IMG/VR virus record: IMGVR_UViG_3300036768_000388
Span: 1 to 59,850 of that record
Source: an uncultured virus (IMG/VR IMGVR_UViG_3300036768_000388)
Lineage: Duplodnaviria > Heunggongvirae > Uroviricota > Caudoviricetes
Reading direction: 5' to 3' (one strand)
DNA length: 59,850 nucleotides
The number at the start of each line of letters is the position of its first letter. Position 1 is the first letter of the stretch. Positions 6,782 through 51,686 of this stretch are shown here, one piece after another. The notes under the pieces were generated by a model, which was given only the letters and a program-made list of their open reading frames with translations, ran no database searches and was not told the DNA's origin. A program made the translations under genes and the position numbers.

Positions 6782-7045
6782 TTAACATCTTTTTTCAACT
6801 ATTTTCCACTGGCCATTTTCAGAACAAGTTAACTCTTCTTTAAGCATCTTGTCTGCTATCTTTTTCGGATCTGGCTTATACGTTCCCGCATCTATTTGTC
6901 TTTGGAGGTTTTTTATTTTAGCTTCTTTAACTTTTTCAGCGGGTATTCCGACAACGTTTGAGCTAGTAGGCAGAATCTTAGCTGACTTTTGTAACTCAGC
7001 TTTTGCTTCTTCCAGTGACTTAATTAACTGTTCGATAATGTTCAT
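6782..7045 (-). CDS. FlgM-like anti-sigma-28 domain protein with LxKS-containing leader
   Basis: KIKNLQRQIDAGTYKPDPKKIADKML matches the FlgM C-terminal helices; start ATG 7045 with GGAG RBS and TGGTAGAAT promoter. Confidence 0.75.
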   Translation of the reverse strand: MNIIEQLIKSLEEAKAELQKSAKILPTSSNVVGIPAEKVKEAKIKNLQRQIDAGTYKPDPKKIADKMLKEELTCSENGQWKIVEKRC

Positions 7046-7064
7046 GTATAACTCCAATAACTTT

Positions 7065-7073
7065 ATTCTACCA
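7065..7073 (-). promoter_or_regulatory. extended -10 promoter (TGGTAGAAT) of the FlgM-like gene
   Basis: TGnTAnAAT about 20 nt upstream of the ATG. Confidence 0.55.
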
Positions 7074-7123
7074 TAAAAGACAATGAAAATTAACAAGTAC
7101 AATTCCACAAAAGGTGGTGCAAA

Positions 7124-7798
7124 ATGGACGATGAAATGGTTATTAAACCGAATGAAATCTGGGTAACTAAGTTTGACGAAGACCATGCACAAAAGTTCCG
7201 TCAACAGGTCTTAGAATCTGCAAAAACTGATCCGAATAAGCCTGTAGTTATCTATATTGATTCTTACGGTGGGTACGTTGACGCACTAGCTAAGATGATC
7301 GAAACACTAGATGAAATCCCTAACCCAGTAGTAACTGTATGTATGGGTAAAGCTATGTCTTGTGGAGCTATTCTTTTATCACATGGAGACGTGCGATTTC
7401 TAGGTGCTAATAGTAGAGTTATGGTTCATGAGGTTAGTTCTGGAACTTACGGTGATGTGCACGATATGCACGCAGACGTAAAAGAAACAGTTAGGTTGAA
7501 TGAGCATTTTATGGGCTTGTTAGCACGCAACTGTGGATTCAAGAGCTATGCAGAGTTGCGGTCTGTTATTAAGGACCAAGATGGAAGGGATAGGTATCTC
7601 TTTGGCGAAGATGCTATTAAATTCGGTATCGTAGATGTTATTGGTTTACCAAAAGTTGTAGGTAGATTAAACTATGAAGTTTCTAAACAAGCTAAGAAAT
7701 TAGCTTTTGAACCTCGCAATAAGCAATCTATCAGAACATCTCAATCTTCTAAAAAGAAAGTTAAAACTAAAAAATCTGATACTAAAAAACAAAGATAA
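7124..7798 (+). other. clpP: ClpP-like protease (paralog 1)
   Basis: IYIDSYGG, GKAMSCG (Ser), VMVHE (His), RDRY (Asp), AIKFGIVD. Confidence 0.9.
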
Positions 7799-7811
7799 TA
7801 TAGGAGGAGTT

Positions 7812-8141
7812 GTGTCAGACCAACAAGAAAAATCTCAGTCAGAGATCGATAGAACAGTGGCAATCACAGCAGAAGATTGTAATGCTGCTTTAGATTTCTG
7901 GAGACATTTTAATATTCCTATTAGCACAGAGTTACAGAATGCAATGGATTCTTTCTCAAGAGACCCATCTTTTGAGAATCAACAGAAAGTTAAATTCTAC
8001 GTGTGTAAGGCTATTGTAGAAACAGACCACCCTGCTTTTAAAGATGAGATGTTCTCTAAGATCGCAGAAGAGTGTGAAAACGTTAGCTTCCACATGCAAT
8101 TTGATAACGAACTAGAGTCAATATTAACAGAAAAAGAATAA
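7812..8141 (+). CDS. hypothetical protein
   Basis: GGAGG RBS before GTG 7812. Confidence 0.7.
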   Translation: MSDQQEKSQSEIDRTVAITAEDCNAALDFWRHFNIPISTELQNAMDSFSRDPSFENQQKVKFYVCKAIVETDHPAFKDEMFSKIAEECENVSFHMQFDNELESILTEKE

Positions 8142-8223
8142 TTTCCGGTACTTATAGTGGAGGACACCTAGGTATCACTTAGCTACCTAAGTGATATAAT
8201 AAGTTAAACAAGGGGAAATTACT

Positions 8224-8814
8224 CTGTCTAAGAAACTTAAGCGCAGAATACAAGAGTTGTGTGGTTTTAACGAATTAACTGACCGTGACGAAAGGATTGA
8301 ACGTGCTTATCAAATTCTCAACAGTGCCGAATTAAAGCAAGCTATATGCCTAAAGATATTAGGCACTACATTTAAAGATGTAGAGAAAGCTATGGATGCT
8401 ATCCTAAAAGAGCGCCATATTCCAGAAGAAAAAATGGAAGAGCTTGAAGAGGACTTTATTCCAGAAAAGTTCGACCCTGAAGTTACATTTATCGCAAATA
8501 AGCAAGCTGCTAGTCCCATTAAGAATAGAGGCTACACAACCCTATCTAGGGAAGATGTTGCTAGGCTTATGGCAGCTTCAAAAGCTGAACCAAAAGGTAT
8601 TGATAACACTCACCCTAAAACTAACTATCCAACTCTTTCTAGAGAAGAGTGCGAGCGATTAGTAAGAGAGTATTTTGAGTACAAACAAAAAGAAATAGAA
8701 CGTAAAAGACAACAAGAAGCGCAAGAGGAGATTCCATGGGTTTCAACGAAGACGACAGAATCCGCTCCAAAAACAAAATCCAAAACGAAGCGTATAAAAT
8801 GTACGAAGGATTAA
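8224..8814 (+). CDS. hypothetical protein with two Y.TLSRE...RL repeats
   Basis: frame is open back to a CTG at 8224 behind a GGGG RBS; YTTLSREDVARL / YPTLSREECERL. Confidence 0.6.
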   Translation: MSKKLKRRIQELCGFNELTDRDERIERAYQILNSAELKQAICLKILGTTFKDVEKAMDAILKERHIPEEKMEELEEDFIPEKFDPEVTFIANKQAASPIKNRGYTTLSREDVARLMAASKAEPKGIDNTHPKTNYPTLSREECERLVREYFEYKQKEIERKRQQEAQEEIPWVSTKTTESAPKTKSKTKRIKCTKD

Positions 8815-8934
8815 GAGCTTTCGGCTATAGTAACGAATATATTATAAAATACACCGAATTTGCCTTATCGTCCTCATCAGACAATTTCCGAAACGAGGTT
8901 CTTCACAAGATGATAGATCTTGCTAGGAGCTTAG

Positions 8935-9732
8935 ATGAGAGCAATTCGAGCAATTCAAGCAATTAGTTTTATATGTCTTATAAGCCATATTTCTTTTGCT
9001 AAGCAAATTAAAGTGGCTGTAATAGATACAGGTATCAGTGAATCAATGTTGAAATCGCCAACTCTTTGTGAAACAGGGCATAAGACTTTCGCTGGTATGT
9101 CTATATTAGATAATAACAATCATGGAACACATGTATCATCCCTAATCGATCAGAATGCTAAAAACTTCTTTGTAGGTGTAGATGGTAGTGATGAAAAGCT
9201 TCAATCAATTAAGATAGATTATTGTCAAATAATCATTAAATTCTACGATCCTAAGTCAACATCTAATTCTTTAGAAAGCACTATTCAATCGTTTAATTAT
9301 GCAATTGAGCAGAAAGTTGACATCATAAATTATTCTGCTGGCGGACTTAAACCTTCAATTCGAGAAAAGAAAGCAGTTATTAAAGCATTAGATGCTGGAA
9401 TAATTGTAGTTGTTGCTGCAGGTAATGAGGGATCTGACTTGAATGAGAAAGGTTACTATCCAGCATTATATGACTCTCGCTTGATTGTGGTTGGTAACTT
9501 AGAAAAACCTAAGCAAATTGCTAAGTCATCTAACTTTGGTTCTAAAGTTACTTCCTGGGAAATAGGAACGAATGTGTTGGGTAAATTGAAAGATGGTTCA
9601 TACGGCATGTTGACTGGTACTTCGCAAGCAGCTGCTATAAAAACTGGAAAATTAATTCGACAAATGGTCTCAAAACAGAACCAGTTACCTAGTCTACGAG
9701 GTAAAATTAAGGCTATACCGATGGAGTTTTAA
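8935..9732 (+). CDS. subtilisin-like S8 serine protease, secreted
   Basis: signal peptide, VAVIDTG, HGTHV, AAGN, GTSQA. Confidence 0.9.
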   Translation: MRAIRAIQAISFICLISHISFAKQIKVAVIDTGISESMLKSPTLCETGHKTFAGMSILDNNNHGTHVSSLIDQNAKNFFVGVDGSDEKLQSIKIDYCQIIIKFYDPKSTSNSLESTIQSFNYAIEQKVDIINYSAGGLKPSIREKKAVIKALDAGIIVVVAAGNEGSDLNEKGYYPALYDSRLIVVGNLEKPKQIAKSSNFGSKVTSWEIGTNVLGKLKDGSYGMLTGTSQAAAIKTGKLIRQMVSKQNQLPSLRGKIKAIPMEF

Positions 9733-10586
9733 TGGGTAAATTAAAAAAGATATTTAGTGGGTTTATTGAAGTTATTAGTCACGTATTATCATTCTTAGCG
9801 ATGACTACATTAGTTTTTGTGAGTTTTATTACTCTAGTTTTTGCTGTAGCAAAAGCCCCAGAAATACATAGCTACCTATTACGTCATAAAGTCGGTGAAA
9901 AAGTATACAAGATAACAAACGATACGCATAAAGGTAGCGGTACTGGATTCGCTATCAAGGGAGATAGTGGGACAACATATATTGCCACAAACGATCATAT
10001 ATGTGAAATTTCATCAGATAAGCAACATATGATCTTAATTTCAAAAGATGGCGAAATTATTCGTAGAAGGATTATAGAGAGATCTGGTTATTCAGATCTA
10101 TGTTTAATCGAAGCCCCACCTGAGGTTGAAGGCTTAGATATGGGGAGTAAACCTAGCATTGGGCAGATCATTGCTTCTATAGGTCATCCAAATGGTTACG
10201 ATCAAACTCTCTCGCGTGGTGAGATCATCATGAGAGAGACAATAGCAATCCCAAAAGGACCAATTAGTCAAATACTTTCTGATGGTTCGGAGAAACTTGC
10301 TCCAGCTGAGTACGGCGGAATCTTAGAGCAAGATTGTCGCTTACCAAAGAATGAAATCGATGTTAAAGAGATAAACATGATGTTTATGGTTATCAAGATA
10401 AAGCAATGTATAAATGTTACTTATAGAGCATATATCACTAACATGCTAATTCAACCTGGTTCATCTGGGTCACCTGCAGTTAATTTCTGGGGTAACGTTG
10501 TAGGTGTAGTTTTTGCTACAGACTCTGCTGGTTGGGCATCTGTCGTATCTTACGACGATCTAAGAGATCTACTTAAAAAGTACTAA
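9732..10586 (+). CDS. trypsin-like serine protease with N-terminal membrane anchor
   Basis: GSGTGF, TNDHIC, DLCL, PGSSGSP. Confidence 0.9.
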   Translation: MGKLKKIFSGFIEVISHVLSFLAMTTLVFVSFITLVFAVAKAPEIHSYLLRHKVGEKVYKITNDTHKGSGTGFAIKGDSGTTYIATNDHICEISSDKQHMILISKDGEIIRRRIIERSGYSDLCLIEAPPEVEGLDMGSKPSIGQIIASIGHPNGYDQTLSRGEIIMRETIAIPKGPISQILSDGSEKLAPAEYGGILEQDCRLPKNEIDVKEINMMFMVIKIKQCINVTYRAYITNMLIQPGSSGSPAVNFWGNVVGVVFATDSAGWASVVSYDDLRDLLKKY

Positions 10587-10627
10587 TAATAAATATCTGA
10601 TCGTATAACCCTCTATATGGAGGGTTT

Positions 10628-11551
10628 ATGTCTATAACTAAACCTATGCTAGCCGCAAGTATGGAAAACTCTAAAGGCGAGCAGATGTCTTTTAAAGATT
10701 TAAAATATCCTCTAATAGCTTCAATTAAATTAGATGGTATTCGCTGTCTTAGAGTTAACGGACAAACATTGTCCCGCTCATTCAAACCTATTCCTAATAA
10801 GTATGTTCAAAAGATGATGGCATCTTTACCAGATGGTTTAGATGGCGAGTTGGTTACGTATAATTCAGATGGTTCTGCAAGAACATTCAATGAGGTTCAG
10901 TCAGATATTATGTCTGAGGATGGTGAACCTAACTTTAAGTTTGAGATATTTGATTATGTTAAAGATACAGTTGATCGTCGATATGATGATCGTTTAGCTG
11001 ATCTAAATAAACTATCCAACTCTCTTCCTAGCTTCTGTTCACTTGTTGTTCAAGTTGTTATCAATAGTGTTGATGAGCTAGAGCAATACGAAGAGAGTGT
11101 TATTGCTCAAGGTCATGAAGGTGTGATGACAAGAAGCCTTAATGGTCCATATAAATGTGGCCGCGCTACATTTAAAAGTCAAGATTTAATTAAGATTAAG
11201 CGTTTCGTAGATAGCGAAGCGGTAATCATTGGATTTGAGGAGAAGTTAAGAAATGGAAACGAAGCAGAAGTTGATGAGCTTGGGCATACTAAACGTAGTA
11301 GTGCTAAAGCTGGCCTTATTCCCGCCGGAACACTTGGCACTCTACTTGTTCGTGATATTAAAGATGGTAGAGAATTTGGTATAGGTACTTACAAAGGCTT
11401 AAAGAAAGAAGATCTACAAGAGATTTGGAATAATAGAGATAAGTACCTTGGTAAGATCGTAAAGTATCAATATCAATTAGTTGGTACTAAAGATAACCCA
11501 CGAATTCCCTCATTTCAAGGGTTTAGAGATGAAAGGGATATGAGTGAGTAA
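10628..11551 (+). CDS. lig: ATP-dependent DNA ligase
   Basis: KLDGIR, DGEL, IFD, EGVM, KIK motifs and C-terminal OB fold. Confidence 0.95.
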   Translation: MSITKPMLAASMENSKGEQMSFKDLKYPLIASIKLDGIRCLRVNGQTLSRSFKPIPNKYVQKMMASLPDGLDGELVTYNSDGSARTFNEVQSDIMSEDGEPNFKFEIFDYVKDTVDRRYDDRLADLNKLSNSLPSFCSLVVQVVINSVDELEQYEESVIAQGHEGVMTRSLNGPYKCGRATFKSQDLIKIKRFVDSEAVIIGFEEKLRNGNEAEVDELGHTKRSSAKAGLIPAGTLGTLLVRDIKDGREFGIGTYKGLKKEDLQEIWNNRDKYLGKIVKYQYQLVGTKDNPRIPSFQGFRDERDMSE

Positions 11552-11613
11552 AGATTTTGCAATGACACTAATAGAAGAACATTTCAATAAAACAGTGAAT
11601 GGTAGGAGAAATT

Positions 11614-12186
11614 ATGAATAAGCTTTATATGCCACTCGATAACGAAACTGGGGGCTTAGGAGATGATGTATCTCTTTTGTCAACTTATCTTGAAGTAGTT
11701 GATGAGCAATTTAACGTTGTAGACTCTTTAGAACTTTATGTAAAACCTAATGATGGTGTTTATAGAGTTGAAGCAGAAGGTTTAAGTATTAATAAGATAA
11801 ATCTTATAGAACACGATAAGATTGCTTTAACTTATTCTGAAGCTGGTCAAAAGCTATTTAAGTTCTTGCAGAAGAACTCTCAAGATGGAAAGATTAAACT
11901 TATTCCCCTAGGCAAGAATGTTCAGTTTGATATTGCTGGTCTACAAAAACACCTACTATCTAAAACCAACATGGAGAAGTTTGTCTCTTATAGAGAGATC
12001 GACATTACTGGTCTAGCTATGGGATTACAAATCGTAGGCAAGCTACCACCAAAAATGTCATTATCCTTAACTTTACTCGCTGAATATCCTAAAGTCCATG
12101 ACTTGGTTCCTGATAATACACATGAGGCAAAGTATGATACTCAAGCAACAGTACTTGTGTATAAGAGGCTTCTGGAGATGCTATGA
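11614..12186 (+). CDS. DEDDh 3'-5' exonuclease
   Basis: DNETGG, KNVQFD, HEAKYD motifs. Confidence 0.85.
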   Translation: MNKLYMPLDNETGGLGDDVSLLSTYLEVVDEQFNVVDSLELYVKPNDGVYRVEAEGLSINKINLIEHDKIALTYSEAGQKLFKFLQKNSQDGKIKLIPLGKNVQFDIAGLQKHLLSKTNMEKFVSYREIDITGLAMGLQIVGKLPPKMSLSLTLLAEYPKVHDLVPDNTHEAKYDTQATVLVYKRLLEML

Positions 12187-12476
12187 ATAAAACCTCTAAA
12201 GAGATAATGTGCTTGAAACGTCTAGAAGAATTAACAAATCAATTAGATGACGTATTAATGTTCTTGAGAGATGAGGGGTTAATAAACGACAGTTACATCA
12301 AGAAAGCTAAGCTATCTCCAGATTGTGCAAAAGAGGTTCAATTAATTCTCTCTGACCTAAAGAGAGATAGTAAGTTGCAGATGTTGAACTTCAACTGGTC
12401 CCTGCTTCCTATAGAGAATATATCTTTATATATCGTTACTGATAGGAACAGTAGGGAGTTTGTTTTTAATGGGTAA
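12183..12476 (+). CDS. hypothetical protein
   Basis: ATGA overlap. Confidence 0.65.
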   Translation: MNKTSKEIMCLKRLEELTNQLDDVLMFLRDEGLINDSYIKKAKLSPDCAKEVQLILSDLKRDSKLQMLNFNWSLLPIENISLYIVTDRNSREFVFNG

Positions 12477-12495
12477 ACACCTAGAATAATCTCTT

Positions 12496-12586
12496 TAGGG
12501 AGATATGTGAGAGTTTAATGAAAGAATACGGTGGCGATGATATTTACTTCATCGCGCTACAAAACTATATAACGCATATCTTTCTG
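12496..12586 (+). ncRNA. candidate rod-shaped small RNA
   Basis: 14-bp closing stem with G-U pairs, inner GCGATGA/TCATCGC stem, TAGAAT at 12482-12487. Confidence 0.3.
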
Positions 12587-12652
12587 GGCCAGATTTTGAT
12601 ATTTGTATAATAATCGTAAGAAGCGTTTTGTAATTTTTTATTCGGAGGTTTT

Positions 12653-13069
12653 ATGTCTAAGAGTCAAAAGCAATCAGTAGTAGATGAAGTAATGTTAGCT
12701 TTACCTAACTTTGTTAAGTACTCTGATAATGCAATATTACTACTTTCTTCTCAGCAGTTAGAGAACATTAAAGCTAATGTCTTTAGCGGTATTATTAATG
12801 GCACAATTGAGTATAGTAAAGATATCAATAACCATGCAGAAGTGCGATCTTATGCAAGAAGTATGGTTATGAATCATCTTAAGAAAGCTAAAGAATTAAA
12901 TGGTGGAAATACTTATACTAGTTCTAGCACTGGCGGCGCTAATCACGTTAACTCAAAGAGCAGTACTTTATCTACTTCTAAAGTATCTAGACAAAGACTA
13001 GCCCCTAAAGGCGTTAATCCAGATCTTTTGACAGAAGAGTTAAAAGAGTATGCACAAACACTTGTCTAA
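12653..13069 (+). CDS. hypothetical protein
   Basis: TATAAT 12606-12611, GGAGG RBS. Confidence 0.75.
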   Translation: MSKSQKQSVVDEVMLALPNFVKYSDNAILLLSSQQLENIKANVFSGIINGTIEYSKDINNHAEVRSYARSMVMNHLKKAKELNGGNTYTSSSTGGANHVNSKSSTLSTSKVSRQRLAPKGVNPDLLTEELKEYAQTLV

Positions 13070-13187
13070 TGATATTTCATTAGGTGATTATGCAGATATA
13101 GTTCAAAAATTTGAATTATTTCTTTACAAGTTAAATATTGGCTTTCATTTAAAGCCAATTAGCTGTTATTCTTTCTCATTGAAGCAT

Positions 13188-13258
13188 AGCGGGGATCGAG
13201 CAGCGTCGACTCACCGGTCTAATAAGCCGGAAAGCATATCTGGTTAGACTCCGCAACT
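13188..13258 (+). pseudogene. degenerate initiator-type tRNA-Met (loop CT-AAT-AA, T arm lost)
   Basis: GCGGGG..GAGCAGC..ACTC, CCGGT/GCCGG anticodon stem, CTCCGCAAC 3' end as in bacterial tRNA-fMet. Confidence 0.6.
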
Positions 13259-13410
13259 AATTTTATGAAAAATACTAAACACTTACATATATGGCCTGCA
13301 ATAGACTTTATTAAGCTTTTAAATAAACTTAAACCACGTGATCCTTTAGATAAACCATTATCTATGAGCTCTGTTGAGCAGTTCTGCAATCGCGTGTATA
13401 AAGGTACCCG

Positions 13411-14418: not shown

Positions 14419-14447
14419 GTAGATCGTAGAGCTTTAAAAAGAAGTTT

Positions 14448-14630
14448 TTGGGGCGCGCTTTTGGAAGGTTAGTTGGAGTCATGCTCGGTGCTGGAGCCGG
14501 TTCATTGCTATACCAAACTATCGGCAGCTCTTCAACTTTATCTATTGGGCTTGCAACATTATTAGCTATTGCTGGTTTTATATTAATTTGGTTCGCAGAA
14601 TATGAAAGAGAGAGAGTTCTAAATGACTAA
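14448..14630 (+). CDS. small two-TM membrane protein
   Basis: two hydrophobic segments; start uncertain. Confidence 0.5.
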   Translation: MGRAFGRLVGVMLGAGAGSLLYQTIGSSSTLSIGLATLLAIAGFILIWFAEYERERVLND

Positions 14631-15030
14631 ATCTGAGTTACTTTCTAAAATGAAAGAGCACCAACAAGCGTATGCTAAATACGCAGCAGAATTGAAAGCT
14701 ATCTCTGCAGCTGAAGAGCAAAAAGCGTATGAAGAGAGACAGCTTGCAAGATTGGAAGAGTATAAGGCTAAATATAGATTCTTTGTAAATAATGATGATA
14801 CTATTAAAGAAATAGATTGGGAAGAAGTAGAGAAGTTAATAAAAACCTCTTTCAATCAAAACTTAGGATATTCTTTAGGGTTTGACCAAAACGGTATGGA
14901 AGGTCTAGGATATGGAGATTCTAGTGGTGGACAATTCATTCCCATGGTTGAAGACGAGATTGAGGGTCAAAGATTTCTTGCTAGAGATAAGCGAAGAAAA
15001 GAATTCGCGGCTAAATTAAAACCAAAGTAG
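14623..15030 (+). CDS. hypothetical coiled-coil protein
   Basis: 135-aa ORF. Confidence 0.7.
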   Translation: MTKSELLSKMKEHQQAYAKYAAELKAISAAEEQKAYEERQLARLEEYKAKYRFFVNNDDTIKEIDWEEVEKLIKTSFNQNLGYSLGFDQNGMEGLGYGDSSGGQFIPMVEDEIEGQRFLARDKRRKEFAAKLKPK

Positions 15031-15035
15031 GTTGT

Positions 15036-17350: not shown

Positions 17351-17364
17351 GTCCATGAATTCTA

Positions 17365-21118: not shown

Positions 21119-21133
21119 CCCATGGTCAGAGGG

Positions 21134-21139
21134 TATAAT
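21134..21139 (+). promoter_or_regulatory. -10 promoter of the kinase-GIY-YIG gene
   Basis: GGGTATAAT followed by GAGG RBS. Confidence 0.55.
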
Positions 21140-21153: not shown

Positions 21154-22344
21154 ATGGAAAAACGAAAGATTTACTTAGTAAGTGGTATATCTGGCTCAGG
21201 GAAGAGCTGGGTATGCTCGCAATTAACAGACAAAGCTATATATATCGATGCTGATTCACTCTCAGTTGAAGATGCCATAGATTTTATGGTTAAAAATAAA
21301 GGTCCATTTTTGTATGATTTACACAAACCTGTGTCAACCTTTATAAGGAAGAACAGCGATATTTTTGATATTTGTTTAGTAGTGATACTAGGTGATTACT
21401 TAGAAATTAAAAGCAACTTAAAAAAAAGAAACCCTGCTTGGACTTATAGCGTTGGCATGAAAACTAGATGGAACAGAATGCACAATTTATCAAAGCACGT
21501 TAAAGCAGTATTTAGTGGGTCAGCAAGAGACGTCCTTAAATTCTTAAAAAGAGATTTAGACGATCGAGTTCATAAAATATATAAAGCCACTTCACCGAGT
21601 GGAAAGGTTTACATAGGTAAAACATCAATGGAATTATCACAAAGAATAGCCAGTCATAAATATGACGCCTTTAAACGTCAAAGACCGTGGGCATTCAGCG
21701 CTGCACTAAGAAAGTATGGTGATCAAATTACATGGGAAATACTAGTAGACAACATTCAGTCCTCCAAAGAGATCTCCTTCTTAGAAAAGAAATATATTAA
21801 GGAGTATCAATCCACTAACCCTAATTATGGGTACAATTTAACGTTCGGTGGAGATGGAGGTGGTCGCTTAATAGGAGAGTTTGCTCTAAAAAAGTCTAAT
21901 AATCTAAAAAAATACTATGCCTCAGATAGAGGACAACAGATGAAAGAGCATTTGCGCAATACATCACTCGCAATGCGCAGCACTAATATTAATAATACTA
22001 TTAATGAAAAAGTTAAGCAAAAAAGATCATCTATAGAGTCAAGAAAAAAGACATCAGAAGCCAATAAAAAACTTTACTCAGATCCAGCAATGCGAGAAAA
22101 AATGTCTCAAATTAATAAGGCTTCATATAGTGATTTAGAAGTTAAACGAAAAGTTGCTTTAGCAGTTCGCGCAGCTAGAGCGAAAAAATTTGATGTTTTT
22201 AAATTAGATGGTACATATGTTGGGCAATGGGATAGCGCTTCGACTTGTGCAGAAGACCTTAATATCTCAAGAAACGGAATATCGAATTGCCTTCATGGTA
22301 GGCAGCAAACAGTTGGCGGTTTTAAAGTTAAATATGTTTATTAA
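21154..22344 (+). mobile_element. free-standing GIY-YIG homing endonuclease with N-terminal P-loop kinase domain and C-terminal NUMOD1-like HTH
   Basis: GISGSGKS; KIY..10..YIG, R, E, GYN; FKLDG..V..W.S...A......I..C..G. Confidence 0.82.
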
Positions 22345-22956: not shown

Positions 22957-24342
22957 ATGTCATCAAGACTTAGAGACCCAAAACAAATTAAAGAACAAAT
23001 GGACAAAGAGTTCGTCTCGGTAGAGGATAAATCGCAATGTTTAGCGACAGCCATCTACGAAACATCTAAGTCGCACCCTTTCTTAGGTTCAGTTCTTCAA
23101 TGTTTAACGATTCAATATTCTCACCAATTACCAACTGCTGGTATCTTGTTCAATACAGATGCTAAGCGCTGGGATATGCTAGTTAATCCATACTTTTTCT
23201 GTAAAAAATTAAATGCAGCTCAACGCAAAGCTGTTCTAATCCACGAATTGTCACACATCACGCATAAACATCCACTACGTGTACCATTCTTAAAGATTTC
23301 TGCTCGTAAGCGCATGCTTATGAATATTGCAGCTGATATGGCCATCAATCAGTTTATCAAAGATCTTCCATCTGGATGTCAACATTGTCCTCCAATCGAA
23401 GCTAAACAACCTTGCCCAGACGAAATGTGTCCAGGTCGTTGCATTGATGTTAAAGATTACTACGATGTTGATGAAAAAACGCAAAATAAACTTCCATGGC
23501 CTACAAACCAAACAATGGAAGCTTATTATGAGCGTTTAATCAAAAGATTCGAAGACCCAGATAAAGATGATAAAGGCGAAGGTAACGCTGGTGGCGGTAC
23601 AAATACATCTGATCTACCAGACACTATCGATGAGCACATGTGGGACGGAGCTGGTGATGAGAAAGAGATGCTTGACGCTACTGAGGAGTTAGTTAAGCGT
23701 GCGATGGTTAAATCTCGCTTATCTTACGACGATTTGCCAGGTCACATTAAAGATCTTTTAGAAGAGATCAAGACTCGCCGTGCAGAATTAAATTACAAAG
23801 CTTTGATTATGGCTGCTATGAAGAAGCACGCTTCTGGTCACAACCGTAAATCAACTTGGAATCGTAAAAATAAACGTCTTGGATTTAAAGCTCCAGGTAC
23901 TAAAGTAGGTGATTTACCTAAGCTCGAGTTATATCTCGATACTTCTGGCTCTATCTCTACGGAAGAGCTAAATGAATTCCTTGAGATCGTTGATCAATTC
24001 TTAAAAGTTGGTGCTCGTAAATGTAACCTATCTTTCTTCCATACAGAGTTGTACGGTAGACAGCCGTATAAGATGGGCACAAATATTAACAAGAATGATA
24101 TTCAGTCTGGCGGCACAGAGTTAACTCCAGTTCTACAAGATATTTTTCAACGACGTGGCGATTTAAGTATCATCATCACTGATGGTTACTACAGCGATGT
24201 CCCTATTGAATCATGGATGAAGCCTGGTCAACAATTTCCGCAAATTCTTTGGATTATCTCTAAGGGGGGCATAGAAAAACACCCTTTAGCGAGAGTCGGC
24301 AATACGGTCAAGGTGCCAGACTCTTCTTCAAGTAAGAAGTAA
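22957..24342 (+). CDS. metallopeptidase-vWA protein (DUF2201-like), partner of the MoxR ATPase
   Basis: HELSH (HExxH), NIAADMAIN, DTSGS MIDAS, GGT, TDG. Confidence 0.9.
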   Translation: MSSRLRDPKQIKEQMDKEFVSVEDKSQCLATAIYETSKSHPFLGSVLQCLTIQYSHQLPTAGILFNTDAKRWDMLVNPYFFCKKLNAAQRKAVLIHELSHITHKHPLRVPFLKISARKRMLMNIAADMAINQFIKDLPSGCQHCPPIEAKQPCPDEMCPGRCIDVKDYYDVDEKTQNKLPWPTNQTMEAYYERLIKRFEDPDKDDKGEGNAGGGTNTSDLPDTIDEHMWDGAGDEKEMLDATEELVKRAMVKSRLSYDDLPGHIKDLLEEIKTRRAELNYKALIMAAMKKHASGHNRKSTWNRKNKRLGFKAPGTKVGDLPKLELYLDTSGSISTEELNEFLEIVDQFLKVGARKCNLSFFHTELYGRQPYKMGTNINKNDIQSGGTELTPVLQDIFQRRGDLSIIITDGYYSDVPIESWMKPGQQFPQILWIISKGGIEKHPLARVGNTVKVPDSSSSKK

Positions 24343-27228: not shown

Positions 27229-27370
27229 GAAACTATTGGTACAGTATAATCAACCGAGAAGGTCCCTAAATAGATACTACGCGGCATCTTGGTCAAAAGA
27301 GTATCTGAAAAGTAAGTGAAGACCTAAAACTAATACCCGTTTTCTCTATCTGTTCATTATCTACCTACAC

Positions 27371-37084: not shown

Positions 37085-37189
37085 GCCTTTAGCCCCACTG
37101 AATTAAACATCTCTCTCTAAAATTATACTATAGTTGGTACTTAGTTAGTAATAAGTTGGTATAAATTCTGAAACCATATGTGACCAAAC

Positions 37190-41204: not shown

Positions 41205-41205
41205 G

Positions 41206-42912: not shown

Positions 42913-42913
42913 C

Positions 42914-43743: not shown

Positions 43744-43744
43744 C

Positions 43745-45802: not shown

Positions 45803-45810
45803 CTTCTCTC

Positions 45811-46818
45811 CTATATAATCGACCAAGGTGCATTGGTTCTTCTATATCTTGTTCCATCGAGTATGTAATTAAAATCTCTTCTAACTGTAAATCCTGGAAA
45901 TTTAGCACTTGTCCATTCAATTCTAATTATTCTTTGATTTTTAGTACCAAAATCCGCATAAGTATAAGTTGGATCAACATCATCTGATGCTAAAATCATT
46001 TGCCTTAAATTATTTACAAATACATGTTGAGTTCCAGAAGGAGTTCCGTCTTCTGTACCTATACTTAATCCACTATTTGATTGTAATTGAGTTAAGATTG
46101 ATGTTAACAATATTTGAGTAGCATCATCATCAACCTTTAAAGTTCCATTAAGTAGTTGTGTTAAAATAGAAGTAAGAAGAACTTGAGCGTCTGTATCTTT
46201 AACGGAAACTTTTCCATTAGAGTCAACTTGAGCTTTATTAGCACCATCACTAATCCCTACTCTAAGATCTAATTCTGAATCTACTCTAAGGGAATGCTTA
46301 ATTCCGGTTTTAGTACCATCTTCAGATCCAGTAGCATTAATAGAGTCAGGAGTAGTTGGATCATATCCGTTGGCCTCAATTTGAATATCACCAATATTTA
46401 CAGATGCATTAACAGGTAAGGGATTTTCATTGTCATAACGTCTACCGTATTTATCTACTAATACTGTTCTTTGAGCAACTGTAGGTTCTTCTTCGTAAAC
46501 TGCTCTAGTGAACTCTTCAAGAGGTACAGATGGTCTTTTTTGCTCATTTGCAGCAATAAAGCAATTTTTAGCTAATGTGTAAGCAGACAGATCAGATCTA
46601 GCATCTATATTTCCCTTTTTAGGACCTATAGCAATTTGTGTCGGTGATATTACTCTTTTGACTTCTATATCATTTAGATTAGGTAAGGTATTTCCACCAA
46701 TATACACTTCTTGCTTTACTTTAAACAAGCTTGCATCTGGAACTACTAATATTCCATCGACAGACCCATCAGCCAATATATACTGATTAGGGACTGCGAT
46801 AAAGCGTTTCTCTAACAT
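45811..46818 (-). CDS. putative virion protein
   Basis: NPLPV motif, duplicated Q.LLTSILTQL. Confidence 0.6.
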   Translation of the reverse strand: MLEKRFIAVPNQYILADGSVDGILVVPDASLFKVKQEVYIGGNTLPNLNDIEVKRVISPTQIAIGPKKGNIDARSDLSAYTLAKNCFIAANEQKRPSVPLEEFTRAVYEEEPTVAQRTVLVDKYGRRYDNENPLPVNASVNIGDIQIEANGYDPTTPDSINATGSEDGTKTGIKHSLRVDSELDLRVGISDGANKAQVDSNGKVSVKDTDAQVLLTSILTQLLNGTLKVDDDATQILLTSILTQLQSNSGLSIGTEDGTPSGTQHVFVNNLRQMILASDDVDPTYTYADFGTKNQRIIRIEWTSAKFPGFTVRRDFNYILDGTRYRRTNAPWSII

Positions 46819-46882
46819 AATTTCCTTACCTAACCAAACACCTATGACCCTTCATAGGCTTTCGTATCTCTATTTTATCAGA

Positions 46883-48082
46883 TTAATAACCTGACGAACC
46901 ATCGTCACGGTCAGTAATCTTTATACTATTCCAATAAGCTATCTCATCCTCTTCAGATGCGAAACGTTGGCTAATTGGCTTAGTAGCTTCCACTAACCAA
47001 TTATTAATACAATTATTCCATTGGTTTTCTGCCTTTTTAGCCATCTCTTCGTTAACAACTAAGTGACCAAACATTTGCTCGTCAGTTGGTTGTGGTGGGG
47101 GAGGGGCCATCATAGTTTGAACTACTGGGTGAGCATCTTTACCAAGCATTTGCTTACTCATCATTAAGTTGGCTAACTGATTAGCCGCAGCCAATTCACC
47201 AGAATGTGCCGTAGCTTTAGCCAATCTAAGTATCTCTTCTTCTGCAGAAGGTATTTGATTATGGCTTACCCAAGCTGTTTTAGTGAGGCCTCGCTTTTTA
47301 TTCTCTTCTGCAATCTCTTCTGGAGACCAGATTTTAACAGGTTGCTTCTTATTAGCAGCACGTTGAATTCTTGCCGTTAAGTCTGCAGACTGCTTTGCAC
47401 TCATTTGCCCTGGTTTAGAGCTATAAGACTTCACATTAACATTTGGTCCGACACCACGAGTTTCACCAGTATTGTTCATTTTTCTTCTAGCATTATCTGC
47501 AAGAGAATATTGCCCTGCACCTTTAGGACCATAGTTTGACTTATTTACACAAGTGTCGCAATCCTCTTCTCCGCAGTCGCACTCTTCTTTTTTCATACCA
47601 GTTAATCCACCATAACCAACTTCACTAAGCAGTTTATTAGGACCACCTGTAAGGGTTTTAGGTCCAGTTTGAGGTTCTGGTGCAACTGGAGCAGTATTTG
47701 TGGGTGTCGCTGGTTTCTGATTTTGAGGATTTTTCATTTGATCTATAGTGATAGGTTGAAGACCTAATTCAGCTCTTCTTCTATTTCTATCAACTAACTT
47801 AGATTTAGCTCTTTGCTCCCAAAGCATCTTAGTGTGCGCATCAGCTTTATTTAAGCCAGAAATATCCTCTAAAGATTTAATAAGTTTATCGGCTAGATCG
47901 TTAGCTTTATCTTTAGGCTTATAGAAGTATCTAGTCGATAAAGTACTTTTCTTTAAATCTTCTACTAGACCTTTAGATGAGAAGCTTTTAGTTAACTGTT
48001 GAACCATCTCTATGGGAGTTTGAGGTGGGATAATTACTTCAACTTCATCTTCACTAATTTGTGTAAATTGTATCCTACTCAT
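46883..48082 (-). CDS. putative internal head protein
   Basis: many [LMV]xK[SA]-type sites; low complexity. Confidence 0.55.
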   Translation of the reverse strand: MSRIQFTQISEDEVEVIIPPQTPIEMVQQLTKSFSSKGLVEDLKKSTLSTRYFYKPKDKANDLADKLIKSLEDISGLNKADAHTKMLWEQRAKSKLVDRNRRRAELGLQPITIDQMKNPQNQKPATPTNTAPVAPEPQTGPKTLTGGPNKLLSEVGYGGLTGMKKEECDCGEEDCDTCVNKSNYGPKGAGQYSLADNARRKMNNTGETRGVGPNVNVKSYSSKPGQMSAKQSADLTARIQRAANKKQPVKIWSPEEIAEENKKRGLTKTAWVSHNQIPSAEEEILRLAKATAHSGELAAANQLANLMMSKQMLGKDAHPVVQTMMAPPPPQPTDEQMFGHLVVNEEMAKKAENQWNNCINNWLVEATKPISQRFASEEDEIAYWNSIKITDRDDGSSGY

Positions 48083-49127
48083 TATCTTCCTCTTCTAAAC
48101 CTAGATCTAAATCAAAGTATTTTTTTAATGGCTTTCTAGCATGCTTTTGCTCTGGCTTTTCAGACACCTTATCTTTTAATTTTTTCTTAGCAATTTCTTC
48201 AGCATGCTTTAGTTTAAGTTCCATTTCTTTTTTCTTAAACTCAAGTTCCATTTGAATTAACTGTTTCTTTTGTTCTAACATTAACTTACGTTCTTCAACA
48301 TCCATCTCAGCCATCTGTTTTTGAACTTCTGTGTTAGGCATCTGAGCTAATGCAGATTGATACTGTAAATCTAGCATTCTCCTTTGATGCTCCTTATCAG
48401 AACCATATGGTGATGATGCTTTAGCATTCTCGTACTCAAGGTCTAACATTCTCTTCTTGTGAGTCTTCTCTGTCTCAGGATCTGGGGACATCATTTGGGC
48501 ATGTTGAAACTCTAAATCTTTCATGCGTTGAGCATGTTGTCTTTCTAACTCCATTACAGCTTTTTTGTGCTCAATATCTGCTTGACCCATTTGCTTAGCA
48601 TTATCTACATTAACATCTGACATAGCGTAAGTAGCATGAGCTTTAGCTTCCTTAGTTTGATCAAACTCTGGTGAGTGATGACCATACATAATATAAGCAA
48701 TCTCAGGATCTGAGTATCCTTCATCTTTTAAAGCTTGAATTATTTTCTCATCTTCTTCAGATAAGTCTTGCTCACCTTCATCCGACACTACTTCGTCGCC
48801 TCGCTCTTCTGGCTGTTCATCTAAAGCTGTTTCATCAATCTGATCTCCATCATCTTGCGTTTCTGGTTGAGAAATATCATCATCTTGAAGATTATCATCC
48901 CCTTCAAAATCTTCCACTTCTGGTTTTTCTTGAGGTTCTTCAGGCTCTTCTTGGGGAGGGTTAGTAGCTTCTGTAAGATCCATAATAGAGTTAAGATTGT
49001 TTAAACCCTTCTTAAGATCTTTCCACTTATCTTTAAGTTTCTTTTTTGGATCTTTTTTAAGTGGCTCTTTACCTTCAACAATCTCTTGTTTTCCGTCTTC
49101 TGTAATTTCAATCATGTCATCAGCCAT
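48075..49127 (-). CDS. acidic coiled-coil putative internal head protein
   Basis: H..RM.DL.(Y/F)..A repeats; likely start ATG 49127. Confidence 0.55.
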   Translation of the reverse strand: MADDMIEITEDGKQEIVEGKEPLKKDPKKKLKDKWKDLKKGLNNLNSIMDLTEATNPPQEEPEEPQEKPEVEDFEGDDNLQDDDISQPETQDDGDQIDETALDEQPEERGDEVVSDEGEQDLSEEDEKIIQALKDEGYSDPEIAYIMYGHHSPEFDQTKEAKAHATYAMSDVNVDNAKQMGQADIEHKKAVMELERQHAQRMKDLEFQHAQMMSPDPETEKTHKKRMLDLEYENAKASSPYGSDKEHQRRMLDLQYQSALAQMPNTEVQKQMAEMDVEERKLMLEQKKQLIQMELEFKKKEMELKLKHAEEIAKKKLKDKVSEKPEQKHARKPLKKYFDLDLGLEEEDNE

Positions 49128-49137
49128 GTTATCCACC

Positions 49138-49977
49138 TTAAACATAATCTATCAAGAATTTCTTCTGATAGTACCCTCTTGCAGCATCTTGTTGCTGTTG
49201 AATAATTTTCTCCAAGTCAGCTAAACGATTTTGTAAGAAAGCTGGACCTAGAGTTGAAGTACTTTGAGATGTACCATCAATACTTATACTAACCCCATTA
49301 TGAGGAAATAAGATTGGTCCCATAATAGATAACATCTTAAATGCTGCCATATTCTCTATTAAGCCTACAAGTAAAGCTGGAACCTTACCACCCTCAAATC
49401 CTGCTCTATATTCTACTAAGATTGCTCCAGGCCAAGTTGAAATTCCACCTGCACCCATTGAATGGTATGCAAAACCAGAATAAACGCTTGCTATAAATCC
49501 AGAAACAGTAACTCCCATTGCTGGAACTAACTGTATAGTTTGCTCTTGAGGTTGTGTATGTATATATTCTAATGGAATATCAATCAGTGGAAAAGATCCA
49601 GGGCTGTTTGGTACACCGTTATTAAAAGTAAGTTGAAACTTAGATACGTCTAATATTGGTCCATGATTAACTTTCATATAACCCCAACTCCACCATTGAA
49701 GTTGACCACTATAGTCATGTCTCTCTCTAAAAGTCACTGGACTAATATAAATATCTAACTGATGCTCAATCTCAGATATCGATTGGTCGATATATTGTTG
49801 AAGTGCTGCATCTGATACTTCTTCACCAGTAAGAAAAGATCTTAACGGCAGACCAAACAATACAGTCTGTCTTAAAGAAGCTGGAGTTGGAATAGGTAAA
49901 TATCTTGTAGGAGTAGATTCTTGGTCTATTTCGAACGCTGGAAATGGTGAGTGCGTTTGTGTTTTAGTAATACTCAT
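49138..49977 (-). CDS. head-tail connector / head completion protein
   Basis: E..LDI.I.P....E..DY, VEY.AG, SISIDG.SQS pattern of the gene that follows the capsid in A511/K-like myoviruses. Confidence 0.65.
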   Translation of the reverse strand: MSITKTQTHSPFPAFEIDQESTPTRYLPIPTPASLRQTVLFGLPLRSFLTGEEVSDAALQQYIDQSISEIEHQLDIYISPVTFRERHDYSGQLQWWSWGYMKVNHGPILDVSKFQLTFNNGVPNSPGSFPLIDIPLEYIHTQPQEQTIQLVPAMGVTVSGFIASVYSGFAYHSMGAGGISTWPGAILVEYRAGFEGGKVPALLVGLIENMAAFKMLSIMGPILFPHNGVSISIDGTSQSTSTLGPAFLQNRLADLEKIIQQQQDAARGYYQKKFLIDYV

Positions 49978-51686
49978 TATTCTTCATCTCCATCAAATTC
50001 TATATTTGGTGTTGCAGGCTGTACCGGTTTTGGCGTTCCCGCAGGTCTTCTTATTACACTTCTTGCAGAACTTATGCGCTGCAATCTTTCCATTCTATTT
50101 TGAGCTTCAGGGTGTTTTGAATTACTCATCATTGAATGAACATCTATCTTAGGTTGTTGAGGCATCTGCTTTTGAGAAGAAAACTTCTTTTGAGAAGAAA
50201 ACTTCTTTTGAGCTTGTCTAACTTCATGAGGTATTTGATCCATGTTTTTCATAGCAGTCATCTGCAATCCACGAATTTTATTTGCTGCGTGGGTTGCAAA
50301 ACTTGCTTTACTTGGATTATCATGATCGTAATCATTTATAGCTTGAATAAGGCCATGCATACCAGCTTCATGTAACATAGACATATCAATGTCTGGGTTT
50401 TTAGCTGGATCAAGCCCAAGTTTTTGTAAAGTCTTGTGAGCATTCATACCAATCAATGGGTGGTAATGTTCAAAAAACTTTTCAAACTTAGGGTCTTTTT
50501 GAGGACCTTCTCCTAAGATTCGACTAATATCTCTTTTAGAACCTTCATCATAGTTCATCATGTCATCGATATTGCCAACTTTCTTAGCTTTGTTATTATA
50601 ATCTTTAGCATACTGTTGGATAAAGTCTTTGTTACCCATAGCAAAAGAAGAAGCAGGATCTTGTTTGGTAGTTGCTTGAGTTCCTTCTTCACCTTTAGTT
50701 CCGCCAGCATGTTGCATACCCTCTTCTAAAGAGTATCCTTCACCACCATGGTCACCACCAGCAATAACATTTCTTATCTGTGCATCTTTAGCAGCAGCAT
50801 GAATATCTTTAGCAGATTTACCTTTTTGGTGAGCTTCATGGTGTGCCATAACAGCATTTTGCAAATGCTCTGGATTTTTAGATGACCATTCTTTTTCAAA
50901 ATTCTCATCCATCTCCATTTGAGATATTGGGTCTGCATTCTTATATTTATCTGAAGAAGTTAATGCTTTGTATGCAGAATTTCTATCTGCATGAGCTTGA
51001 TTTCTTGCCTCAACAATGTGACCATGTCTAGCTAACTGTGGATTTTTAGAAGGATCTGCTTTTAGGGCAGCAGTTTCACGAGCTCTTTGCTCCCAAGGTC
51101 TAGTATATGCACGCATAGCCATGAGGTCTTCACGGCTAGGCTGCATGAATCTGCTTTTCTTACCAGTTACTTCTTCTTTGGGTTCTTTTTGTACTTGCGC
51201 TTTAGGGGTAACACTTTTGCCTTGTGCTCCTGCTGCAGCTGGCTCTTCACCATCTTCTTCGGATCCGAATCCGCCGCCATCATCTTCTCCCATGCTGCCA
51301 TAATCTTCTCCAATACTTGCTTGATGAGCATCTTCATCTTCATCATCACTGTATTCCTCATAATCTTCTCCTCGTCCATAAGTTGGATCATTTTCTTTTA
51401 ACCAAGCGTCGCCTTCAGATTCTTCTTGATCTGGGTCAAACTCTCTATATCCTTCACCATATTCATCGTCTTCTTGATCGCTTGCATACGGATCTTCATT
51501 AGGATCATATTCGTCACTAAGTTTTTTAGCTTTTTCAAGCTCTTCAGATTTAGTCATTTTTTGATAAATATAATTAGTTAATGCCCAGAATTTATCTCCA
51601 TCTGATTCAGATAAAGATTTTCCAGCAGCATCTTTTGCTTTTTGCCATCTAGCTTCGTCAGCTTTTGTTCTAATAAATGCAGGCAT
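49977..51686 (-). CDS. head-module protein with a C-terminal FliA/sigma-28-like region 2 domain
   Basis: HYHPLI...AH, L.EAGMHGLIQAINDYD, SFATHA..KIRG, MDQIP.EVR at about 50205-50490. Confidence 0.72.
   Translation of the reverse strand: MPAFIRTKADEARWQKAKDAAGKSLSESDGDKFWALTNYIYQKMTKSEELEKAKKLSDEYDPNEDPYASDQEDDEYGEGYREFDPDQEESEGDAWLKENDPTYGRGEDYEEYSDDEDEDAHQASIGEDYGSMGEDDGGGFGSEEDGEEPAAAGAQGKSVTPKAQVQKEPKEEVTGKKSRFMQPSREDLMAMRAYTRPWEQRARETAALKADPSKNPQLARHGHIVEARNQAHADRNSAYKALTSSDKYKNADPISQMEMDENFEKEWSSKNPEHLQNAVMAHHEAHQKGKSAKDIHAAAKDAQIRNVIAGGDHGGEGYSLEEGMQHAGGTKGEEGTQATTKQDPASSFAMGNKDFIQQYAKDYNNKAKKVGNIDDMMNYDEGSKRDISRILGEGPQKDPKFEKFFEHYHPLIGMNAHKTLQKLGLDPAKNPDIDMSMLHEAGMHGLIQAINDYDHDNPSKASFATHAANKIRGLQMTAMKNMDQIPHEVRQAQKKFSSQKKFSSQKQMPQQPKIDVHSMMSNSKHPEAQNRMERLQRISSARSVIRRPAGTPKPVQPATPNIEFDGDEE
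50169..50212 (-). repeat. 18-bp tandem duplication (QKKFSS)
   Basis: read directly from the sequence. Confidence 0.85.

Follow-up and report, generated by a model that had tools for sequence, protein, structure and literature searches.

Phage sigma and anti-sigma factors are classic tools for taking over host transcription, and those we know of either have no relationship to host factors or copy them at full length. The window analysed here, an IMG/VR virus record taken in its entirety (59,850 bases), raises the question of what a phage does with pieces of a bacterial flagellar regulatory pair. On its minus strand it encodes a 569-amino-acid (aa) protein (P0002, 49977..51686) with a domain resembling the sigma factor FliA (sigma-28), as well as an 87-aa protein (P0001, 6782..7045, stop codon included) assigned to the FlgM anti-sigma family by translation and Pfam. 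An earlier note on this DNA had proposed that both proteins are packaged and injected, the FlgM mimic silencing FliA and the domain-4-less sigma redirecting or occupying core polymerase, which on injection would begin at time zero. Our analysis bears this out in part: the note was right on both family resemblances, and the link it drew between the two proteins appears to be wrong or is at least unsupported. Most likely, both are transcription-takeover genes, each working on its own within the infected cell. The 569-aa protein would be a "half sigma": its domain 2, derived from FliA/WhiG, would bind the host core RNA polymerase at the beta-prime clamp helices and recognise a -10-type promoter element jointly with the adjoining helix; domain 4 would probably be supplied in trans by a clade-wide, Cys-rich helix-turn-helix protein, giving a split sigma like T4 gp55 and gp33. 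The 87-aa anti-sigma factor most likely sequesters host FliA, which would shut down the late flagellar genes.

The sigma-like domain of the 569-aa protein

When residues 393-519 of the 569-aa protein were compared with the PDB by phmmer, WhiG (6pfv, E 3.3e-5) and FliA (9wsm, E 8.7e-5; 6pmi, E 2e-4) were retrieved, and a profile built from 25 family members reached E 1.2e-6 and 1e-5, all of its significant rows being sigma-28-group chains. The NCBIfam FliA_WhiG model TIGR02479 matches the protein with E 1e-10; the best five NCBIfam models are all of the FliA/WhiG type (E 1e-10 to 2e-4), and those of other sigma classes give E-values of at least 0.05. The whole-protein score against TIGR02479 is 41.8 bits, compared with a cut-off of 189.6. 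On these matches we assign residues ~399-505 (50172..50492, minus strand) as a FliA/WhiG-type sigma domain 2, comprising regions 2.1-2.4 and a following 'D-x-I-P-x-E-V-R' helix; by the same comparisons the protein as a whole is not a FliA, and domain 2 is the only FliA-derived part.

The model predicted by AlphaFold2 (AF2) from a 73-sequence alignment has a mean predicted local distance difference test score (pLDDT) of 73.8, with order predicted for residues 1-57, 180-310 and 375-490. Its top rows in a Foldseek search are exclusively sigma factors, with local fits to sigma-28 and WhiG at 28-32% identity; superposed on sigma-28 chain 9wsm_F, the root mean square deviation (rmsd) is 2.0 over 79 columns at 32% identity. 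VIA-align, which is independent of Foldseek, ranked SigB (Z 8.7) first, then a fragment of RpoS regions 1.2 and 2 (8.0), pro-sigma-K, SigE, WhiG, sigma-32, SigI, T4 gp55 (7.1) and sigma-28 (6.8); these Z values are middling for helical models and corroborate the sequence result, being no proof alone.

The family to which the protein belongs comprises 264 of 8000 scored candidates at E<=1e-3, and an exhaustive profile search found 417 representatives at the same threshold, making the clade abundant in metagenomes; the relatives from that search are described from the best 150 of the 417. At library-wide E-values the family profile reaches true sigma factors, P0298 (3.1e-11) and P0323 (1.2e-7), for both of which the best NCBIfam models are FliA/WhiG; P0323, with 265 bits, passes the TIGR02479 cut-off, which P0298 fails with 125.9 bits. 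Five relatives of 118-135 aa consist of a free-standing domain 2, and four of the five pass the cut-off of the Pfam model Sigma70_r2, as does the homologue in the related record G009 (29.1 bits). Because no other Sigma70_r2 match was found in the related genomes G001, G006, G007 and G008, the 569-aa family would provide the only sigma-like domain 2 of these phages.

Sequence conservation within the family peaks in sigma domain 2. The residues L438, H439, E440, A441, G442, H444, G445 and L446 are invariant, as are F463, H466, A467, K470, G473, L474, D483, P486 and R490, and in 73 sequences with overall identities down to 52%, neither region 2.2 (LHEAGMHGL-Q), which binds core, nor the helices facing the DNA vary. 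This conservation bears on the idea that the 569-aa protein serves in virion structure or assembly, its sigma domain being vestigial and without a role in transcription. Its position in the head module and the many relatives without a sigma domain would suit that idea, but the supposed vestige is the most conserved part of the protein, and we judge it most improbable.

In the phmmer alignment, R472 and D483 correspond to R82 and D93 of Pseudomonas aeruginosa sigma-28. According to the study reporting the sigma-28/FlgM structure of that species, mutation of R82 abolishes transcription, and the flipped template base is held by D93 (PMC12784957). Since a mere occupant of the polymerase would not need these two residues, domain 2 likely still handles promoter DNA as well as polymerase. 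Such an occupant is nevertheless conceivable: the 569-aa protein could simply fill the sigma-docking site on beta-prime, blocking host transcription or tethering the polymerase without reading promoters. Region 2.2 being the best conserved stretch, the lack of a domain 4 and the lack of a phage-specific promoter motif tied to the protein would all fit. Yet the DNA-facing residues in helices 2.3 and 2.4 and in the following helix are equally invariant, and the domain-2-only relatives together with a conserved 4.2-like partner (see below) suggest a working sigma. Moreover, no RNA polymerase gene turned up in the parts of the related phages that were examined in a non-exhaustive search, so these phages would need the host enzyme. 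A decoy of this kind therefore seems distinctly unlikely to us.

The earlier note had placed the FliA-like region 2 at the very end of the protein and stated that region 4 is missing. The region itself is supported by the PDB, NCBIfam and AF2 comparisons; about 65 residues follow it. This C-terminal tail (aa 506-569, 49980..50171, minus strand) is modelled with low confidence (pLDDT 44-78) and Pfam Sigma70_r3 does not match the protein at E<=1. The TIGR02479 match extends to profile position 126 of 224 (protein residues 406-535) and AF2 places low-confidence helices at 516-543; the tail is possibly a remnant of sigma domain 3. As for region 4, neither Sigma70_r4 nor Sigma70_r4_2 (PF04545, PF08281) matches anything in the window at E<=1, with positive controls found in 14 of 14 genomes, in agreement with the note.

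Ahead of domain 2 lies a conserved helical middle module (aa ~180-390, 50517..51149, minus strand) with pLDDT ~87-97 at residues 180-310. Many relatives of 320-450 aa consist of this module alone (profile positions ~45-375), without the sigma domain, and none of the ten that were scanned belongs to a PHROG family. VIA-align found no convincing fold for it, the rows over residues 211-315 being generic long-helix matches with Z below 8. Several VIA-align rows begin near residue 178, and in the model helix 185-209 may pack on domain 2 in the way known from region 1.2 of other sigma factors. Pfam has no family for the 569-aa protein, and the PHROGs hold nothing useful for it or for the 87-aa protein: its sole row is phrog_20559 (E 0.018, function unknown), with none at E<=0.001.

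A candidate domain-4 half and a proposed split-sigma design

Scanning five related records with Sigma70_r4 gave weak matches of 17-23 bits, below the cut-off. In G001-G004 they fall in a small open reading frame (ORF) that lies upstream, some 9 kb from the sigma-like gene, and in G005, which is unrelated, elsewhere. The same small ORF is matched in G006, G009 and G010, in the last case above the cut-off (25.3 bits). The G001 protein (P0175) has 134 aa, carries four invariant cysteines and ends in "SDIELAALLNVSVDTIKKIEKQALVKMR"; its Pfam Sigma70_r4 match (E 1.3e-4) covers profile positions 25-50 only, and its best NCBIfam rows all lie on the last ~30 positions of sigma models (best E 3.3e-5). 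A profile of the small protein itself found it in five of five further records, all four near-complete genomes included, with E 1e-57 to 1e-78. All nine related records, G001-G004 via the weak matches, thus appear to encode a Cys-rich protein of 109-135 aa with a sigma-4.2-like helix-turn-helix, for which a sigma-4 type is plausible. Its gene (for example L010:1255-1659, L053:1414-1821 and L051:1471-1800 in relatives) shares the strand of the sigma-like gene in every case, 9-11 kb upstream of it and immediately ahead of a prohead protease gene (551 aa; phrog_1028 head maturation proteases, E 8.5e-11).

The clade would accordingly combine one domain-2 protein with one 4.2-like protein and no full sigma factor, which in terms of gene content is a split-sigma layout. 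The earlier note's picture of a region-4-less system holds for the 569-aa protein and overlooks the 4.2-like protein encoded just beyond the window end; because that protein is clade-wide, a split sigma is the likelier design. In our estimate from the sequences, cooperation of the FliA-derived half sigma with the small 4.2-like protein on host core polymerase has a little less than an even chance of being correct.

The closest parallel is the late transcription system of T4. As set out in PMC2988020, gp55 docks where sigma domain 2 does and gp33 occupies the flap site of domain 4, the pair being termed "a split sigma", and T4 late promoters consist of a -10-type element only; gp34/gp33 of SPO1 are mentioned as a comparable system in PMC9429907. 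The likeness would lie in a domain-2-only phage protein on the beta-prime coiled coil and a small second protein that, as proposed here, replaces domain 4; moreover, the AF2 model aligns to gp55 chain 7d7d_F with Z 7.1 and an rmsd of 3.7 over 99 residues. The differences are considerable. Domain 2 is recognisably FliA/WhiG-derived here (28-32% identity in local Foldseek fits, compared with 5% to gp55), and there is no membership of the gp55 family by sequence or profile, so that the 569-aa protein works like gp55 at best. In addition, domain 2 stands at the end of a large protein behind a conserved module, both genes lie in the head module, and no link to a sliding clamp is known here. Whereas gp33 reads no DNA, the candidate partner has a sigma-4.2-like helix-turn-helix. 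A cellular counterpart is the SigO-RsoA pair of Bacillus subtilis, in which domain-2 and domain-4 functions reside on separate polypeptides; this pair is encoded by neighbouring genes and belongs to a type other than FliA. The phage clade seems to have trimmed a flagellar-type sigma factor until only the half that docks on the polymerase was left, and to have joined this half to a large module of unknown function. If this half works with the small helix-turn-helix protein, it would represent a second, independent origin of the gp55/gp33 design, with its ancestry still visible.

We also analysed promoter motifs in the window and in the complete genome G006. In the window, TATAAT is concentrated about twofold between genes (18 of 73 sites in the 12.8% that is intergenic), and GTATAAT over the whole window is not significant, with 21 occurrences versus 14.1 expected and 6 of 100 shuffles reaching 21. 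In G006, GTATAAT stands in 14 of 99 upstream regions compared with 1.13 expected, and its TATAAT sites are preceded by T-(G/A)-G (T at -3 and G at -1 in 14 of 21 each) with no evident -35 element. The gene run that contains the 569-aa gene is headed by such a motif, GTATAAT within AAGGTATAATG, which is conserved before the homologous 112-aa gene in contig L002 (position 8472) and recurs as TAAGGTATAATGG at 2953 in L013, where the downstream gene is unmapped. Extended -10-type sites would suit domain 2 with its following helix and would equally suit the primary sigma factor of the host, and carry no weight either way. Further T-(G/A)-G-TATAAT sites in the window include 55858-55864, 57204-57210, 37122-37128, 12605-12611, 21133-21139 and 27244-27250.

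Several observations weigh against a working split sigma. Sigma70_r2 fails to match the 569-aa protein and anything else in the window, so that the domain-2 homology rests on the PDB and NCBIfam matches and on the transitive evidence from the family profile, the small relatives and G009; of the two profile matches the earlier note had looked to, the one to FlgM (PF04316) was found and the one to Sigma70_r2 was not, the FliA/WhiG model of NCBIfam (E 1e-10) standing in its place. The many relatives that carry the N-terminal part and the middle module without a sigma domain mean that the protein's main job may sit there. The small protein's gene would lie ~2 kb past the right end of the window, its presence in the window phage being expected from synteny; a profile search of the PDB places the protein closest to CylR2, which is of the Xre type (E 0.004), SigA region 4 chains scoring no better than 0.12, and its AF2 model is unusable (pLDDT 48). 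The sigma-28 -10 consensus, GCCGATAA, is not enriched, with 29 matches against 30.3 expected, and TRGTATAAT occurs in all parts of G006 and equals the ordinary extended -10 element of a host primary sigma factor, so it lends no specific support. Finally, both sigma halves lie in late structural operons, which is odd for a late-gene switch and fits packaging about as well.

The FlgM homologue and its likely target

The 87-aa protein matches Pfam FlgM (PF04316) with E 4.7e-10 and 40 bits, above the cut-off of 25, residues 34-69 aligning to positions 22-55 of the 55-position profile, which confirms the FlgM-like gene of the earlier note at 6782-7045. With the NCBIfam model TIGR03824 it scores 35.1 bits (E 1.8e-8) and misses the equivalog cut-off of 40.75; on both matches it is a member of the FlgM family and not a certified equivalog. 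In a word-based search 52 relatives turned up, 75-153 aa long and each with a precomputed PF04316 assignment. Their alignment shows three conserved parts: an N-terminal helix, which in the 87-aa protein is the phage-family-specific MNIIEQLIKSLEEAKAEL, a variable linker, and a core, "VK-K-LQ-QIDAGTYKPDPKKIADKML", behind which stands the phage-specific motif "TCSENGQW". The core corresponds to the two C-terminal helices of FlgM (aa 34-72, 6830..6946, minus strand; the genome scan places the Pfam match at 6839-6946).

A phmmer search of the PDB with the 87-aa protein alone gave no row at E<=10, FlgM chains being reached only by the family profile, whose top two rows are 9wsf_B of P. aeruginosa (E 0.018) and 1rp3_B of Aquifex (E 0.049). 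In the P. aeruginosa complex, as described in PMC12784957, FlgM contacts all three sigma domains, domain 2 included, with domain 4 as the main interface, and V77, I80, I84, V96, A97, L100 and L101 plus E104 are the contacts to domain 4. We paired these residues with the phage protein in a register of our own, read from the consensus alignment of the family profile to 9wsf_B: V77/I44, I80/L47, I84/I51, V96/I63, A97/A64, L100/M67, L101/L68 and E104/E71. In this register all seven hydrophobic sigma-4 contacts and E104 are conservatively retained, and we regard the 87-aa protein, on this alignment, as a genuine FlgM-family protein with an intact sigma-4-binding face. Because the hydrophobic face with which FlgM covers domain 4 of sigma-28 is retained, host FliA is the likeliest target; that a separately acting anti-sigma factor of the FlgM type is aimed at host FliA is, judged from these residues, slightly favoured by probability. 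The premise of the earlier note that a domain-4-directed FlgM would largely spare a domain-4-less sigma agrees with the interface described in PMC12784957.

Compared with the bacterial FliA/FlgM pair, the similarities are the Pfam FlgM match with its sigma-4 contacts and a sigma-like domain closest to FliA/WhiG. The phage setting differs in that both are phage-encoded, and no domain 4 is detectable in the sigma-like protein, which retains a remnant of domain 3 at most. Bacterial FlgM has a disordered N-terminal half that acts as the signal for flagellar export; the phage homologue has its own N-terminal helix and a C-terminal 'SENGQW', and secretion through the flagellar gate is not expected. 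T4 AsiA, a small phage protein with its own fold, binds domain 4 of the host primary sigma factor and reprogrammes transcription. In contrast to AsiA, which hits the primary sigma, the phage FlgM would be a captured homologue of the host's anti-sigma-28 factor. Part of the clade also seems to carry the host's own anti-sigma-28, for which the literature searches gave no phage example; the earlier note's view that the pairing is novel is in keeping with these searches of listings and abstracts, which took in few of the subscription journals and gave neither a phage-encoded FlgM nor a FliA-type phage sigma. If the FlgM homologue blocks host FliA, it would be a phage switch for bacterial motility.

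The gene stands isolated on the minus strand, with thyX on one side and a ClpP-like gene on the other and ribonucleotide reductase genes just beyond. We take the ORF at 6036-6716 to be thyX on the strength of a recognised RHRSFTFQEFSQRY motif; the divergent neighbour (7124..7798, plus strand) is a ClpP-like serine protease gene (phrog_94, E 3.6e-27, and ATP-dependent protease families). A GGAG ribosome site lies 8 nt 5' of the ATG, and an extended -10-like site, TGGTAGAAT, lies upstream on the minus strand (7065..7073), identified by resemblance to the consensus only. The neighbourhood is the same in G001, G007 and G008. The window ORF ends after 87 aa, 65 bases short of the thyX end; in G001 (L007:1414-2211) and G006 (L042:1342-2142) the FlgM-like part forms the front of a ~265-aa ORF with an extra C-terminal region.

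Among relatives with the sigma-like gene, Pfam FlgM is found in one of the four near-complete ones (at least 91% complete) and in none of the five fragmentary ones, which, being fragments, say little. G001 and G006 carry both the FlgM core and the sigma-like gene, and contigs of 178,764, 177,092, 165,558, 96,825 and 177,578 bases, matched on size, appear in both homologue lists and presumably carry both genes. A profile of the phage's own FlgM-like family finds a gene at the equivalent position in all four near-complete relatives; in G007 and G008 this positional homologue keeps the N-terminal helix and the "NGQW" motif and has lost the FlgM helices, and in G009 it is a scrambled version. Because Pfam FlgM occurs in only one of four relatives and the helices are gone in G007 and G008, the FlgM core and the sigma-like gene are not an obligate pair; the co-occurrence in relatives that the earlier note had named as a check holds for some of them only. 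By this distribution, the sigma-like and 4.2-like genes appear to be clade-wide and the FlgM core confined to a sub-clade.

The same distribution bears on a different target. It is doubtful, in our view, that the anti-sigma factor acts on a phage protein. In the form of a phage-internal checkpoint, the FlgM homologue would hold the phage's own split FliA-type sigma, through its 4.2-like half or its domain 2, inactive until a set time. Both parts stem from the same bacterial regulatory pair, FlgM also reaches domain 2 in the P. aeruginosa complex (PMC12784957), and wherever the FlgM core was found (window, G001, G006) it is accompanied by sigma-like and 4.2-like genes, the window's 4.2-like gene being expected from synteny. 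However, G007 and G008 have the sigma-like and 4.2-like genes without the FlgM core, the main FlgM interface is domain 4 and the phage 4.2-like protein is barely recognisable as a sigma, and the two window genes lie 43 kb apart in different transcription units, making such a checkpoint unlikely. A complex prediction with residues 385-569, the small protein and the FlgM homologue, run without controls, gave a score of 0.00 and a mark of 0.32 and speaks neither for nor against an interaction. Host FliA remains the target we favour, with two points to its debit: its presence in the host is assumed, and the loss of the FlgM core from the positional homologues in G007 and G008 means that the activity is not essential to the clade.

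Gene order, the N-terminal leader and proposed virion delivery

By its sequence the phage is a large, uncultured, myovirus-like one with a distantly SPO1-like capsid protein. CheckV rates the window 34% complete, and since 34% corresponds to 59,850 bases, the full genome should be about 175 kb, in agreement with the contigs of 165-179 kb that bear homologues and with three 100%-complete relatives of 175-177 kb. The window has a GC content of 33-40% and no tRNA genes. Its capsid protein (57289..58749, minus strand; phrog_752, E 4.1e-56) is 31% identical to those of SPO1, CP-51 and other Bacillus myoviruses. A blastn search of the region against 50,697 phage records gave no match, so no cultured phage in that set is similar at the DNA level; in tblastn searches of the same records the 569-aa protein had no match and the 87-aa protein a single chance-level row (E 0.8). 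At the sensitivity of these searches neither gene appears in any cultured relative.

Read along the minus strand, the capsid gene is followed by a strong terminator-like hairpin (57263-57238) and a TTGTAA-18-TATAAT site, an HNH-like ORF (55987-57186), a 183-aa ORF, genes for thymidylate kinase and a DNA polymerase exonuclease subunit (phrog_403, E 3.3e-103; 53750-55293) between the capsid and neck genes, and a 184-aa ORF. The promoter-like GTATAAT within AAGGTATAATG (53147..53153) then heads a run of genes for 112, 360, 569 and 279 aa. The stop codon of the 360-aa ORF (51686..52768; no significant Pfam or PHROG family) overlaps the start of the 569-aa gene, whose own stop overlaps the start of the 279-aa structural, adaptor-like gene (49138..49977; phrog_772, E 5.8e-28). 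Because the phrog_772 homologue directly follows the capsid gene in Bacillus phage CP-51, the 569-aa gene seems to lie in a stretch inserted into the head/neck row. The earlier note had it inside the head module, which is accurate in that it lies between the capsid and adaptor-like genes, but the interval also holds the HNH-like ORF, thymidylate kinase and the exonuclease subunit.

This position, translationally coupled to structural genes, is the first argument for virion delivery of the pair as the earlier note proposed it, and the head-module location of the sigma-4.2-like gene is another. A third is the long acidic, disordered stretch in the 569-aa protein (aa ~57-170, 51177..51518, minus strand), which is rich in D and E and has AF2 pLDDT values mostly below 60. 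A fourth is the ~48-aa N-terminal leader (MPAFIRTK...WALTNYIYQKM; 51543..51686, minus strand), which also starts otherwise different proteins in other phages, namely P0322 (730 aa), P0324 (190 aa) and a 244-aa ORF (L006:9953-10687) of the unrelated, GC-richer record G005, the last of these 5 kb from an ADP-ribosyltransferase ORF (L006:3946-4914; PF03496, E 2.4e-28). Such a leader on unrelated cargo could be a targeting or docking module, and recalls the capsid-targeting sequences of T4 internal proteins. Lastly, TRGTATAAT is genome-wide and not late-specific.

Against these points, the leader is present in 14 of 25 aligned family members and missing in 11, as well as in the entire G006 genome, sigma-like gene included; no other ORF of the window carries it, and the leader alone, used as query in a word search, retrieved nothing beyond the family. 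The FlgM-like gene, for its part, stands alone among nucleotide-metabolism genes on the opposite strand from them, with its own promoter-like site TGGTAGAAT, and nothing in its position suggests a virion protein. Nor do the K-S/K-A dipeptides, read by the earlier note as motifs like a capsid maturation site, point to packaging: their counts are as composition predicts (3 versus 2.0 expected in the 87-aa protein, 13 versus 9.2 in the 569-aa protein and 3 versus 5.0 in the capsid protein), and no maturation site is known. Together with the occurrence of the Pfam FlgM core in only one of four near-complete relatives, this leaves the injected pair unsupported, and we consider it improbable. Separate action from inside the infected cell is the reading we retain.

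Virion delivery of transcription proteins has precedents. The virion RNA polymerases of N4 and of phiKZ and AR9 are expressed late, packaged, injected and active at the start of infection, according to PMC5312081 and PMC7598289. T4 Alt is a late-expressed modifying enzyme that is likewise packaged, injected and acts on transcription. For these polymerases and modifying enzymes, packaging has been proven by proteomics. We know of no packaged sigma-like factor. A variant in which both FliA-derived halves of the split sigma, the domain-2 half with an optional targeting leader and an acidic tail, are packaged in the capsid, so that the injected DNA brings its own promoter-specificity subunit and the FlgM of the sub-clade removes the most similar host sigma, is in our opinion hardly more than a slim prospect; if true, a packaged split sigma would be the first virion-delivered sigma factor.

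Three metagenomic bin labels (Saprospiraceae, Cytophagales and Nitrososphaerales; contigs L013 and L014, and P0088) were rejected as host calls and treated as binning artefacts, because they conflict with each other and 41 of the 74 window genes are preceded by the Shine-Dalgarno-type sites GGAG, GAGG or AGGA. Such ribosome sites are rare in Bacteroidota.

Among the other features of the window, the ClpP-like protease has a lysine-rich tail and lies far from the head module, which in relatives has a protease of its own (L002:1413-3068), so the phage may hold two proteases of different kinds. The nucleotide-metabolism block (3220-6716 and 10628-11551) comprises the large and small subunits of ribonucleotide reductase, thyX and an ATP-dependent DNA ligase. 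Three ORFs resemble homing endonucleases of the GIY-YIG and HNH families (21154-22344, 22957-24342 and 55987-57186), the third directly following the capsid gene.

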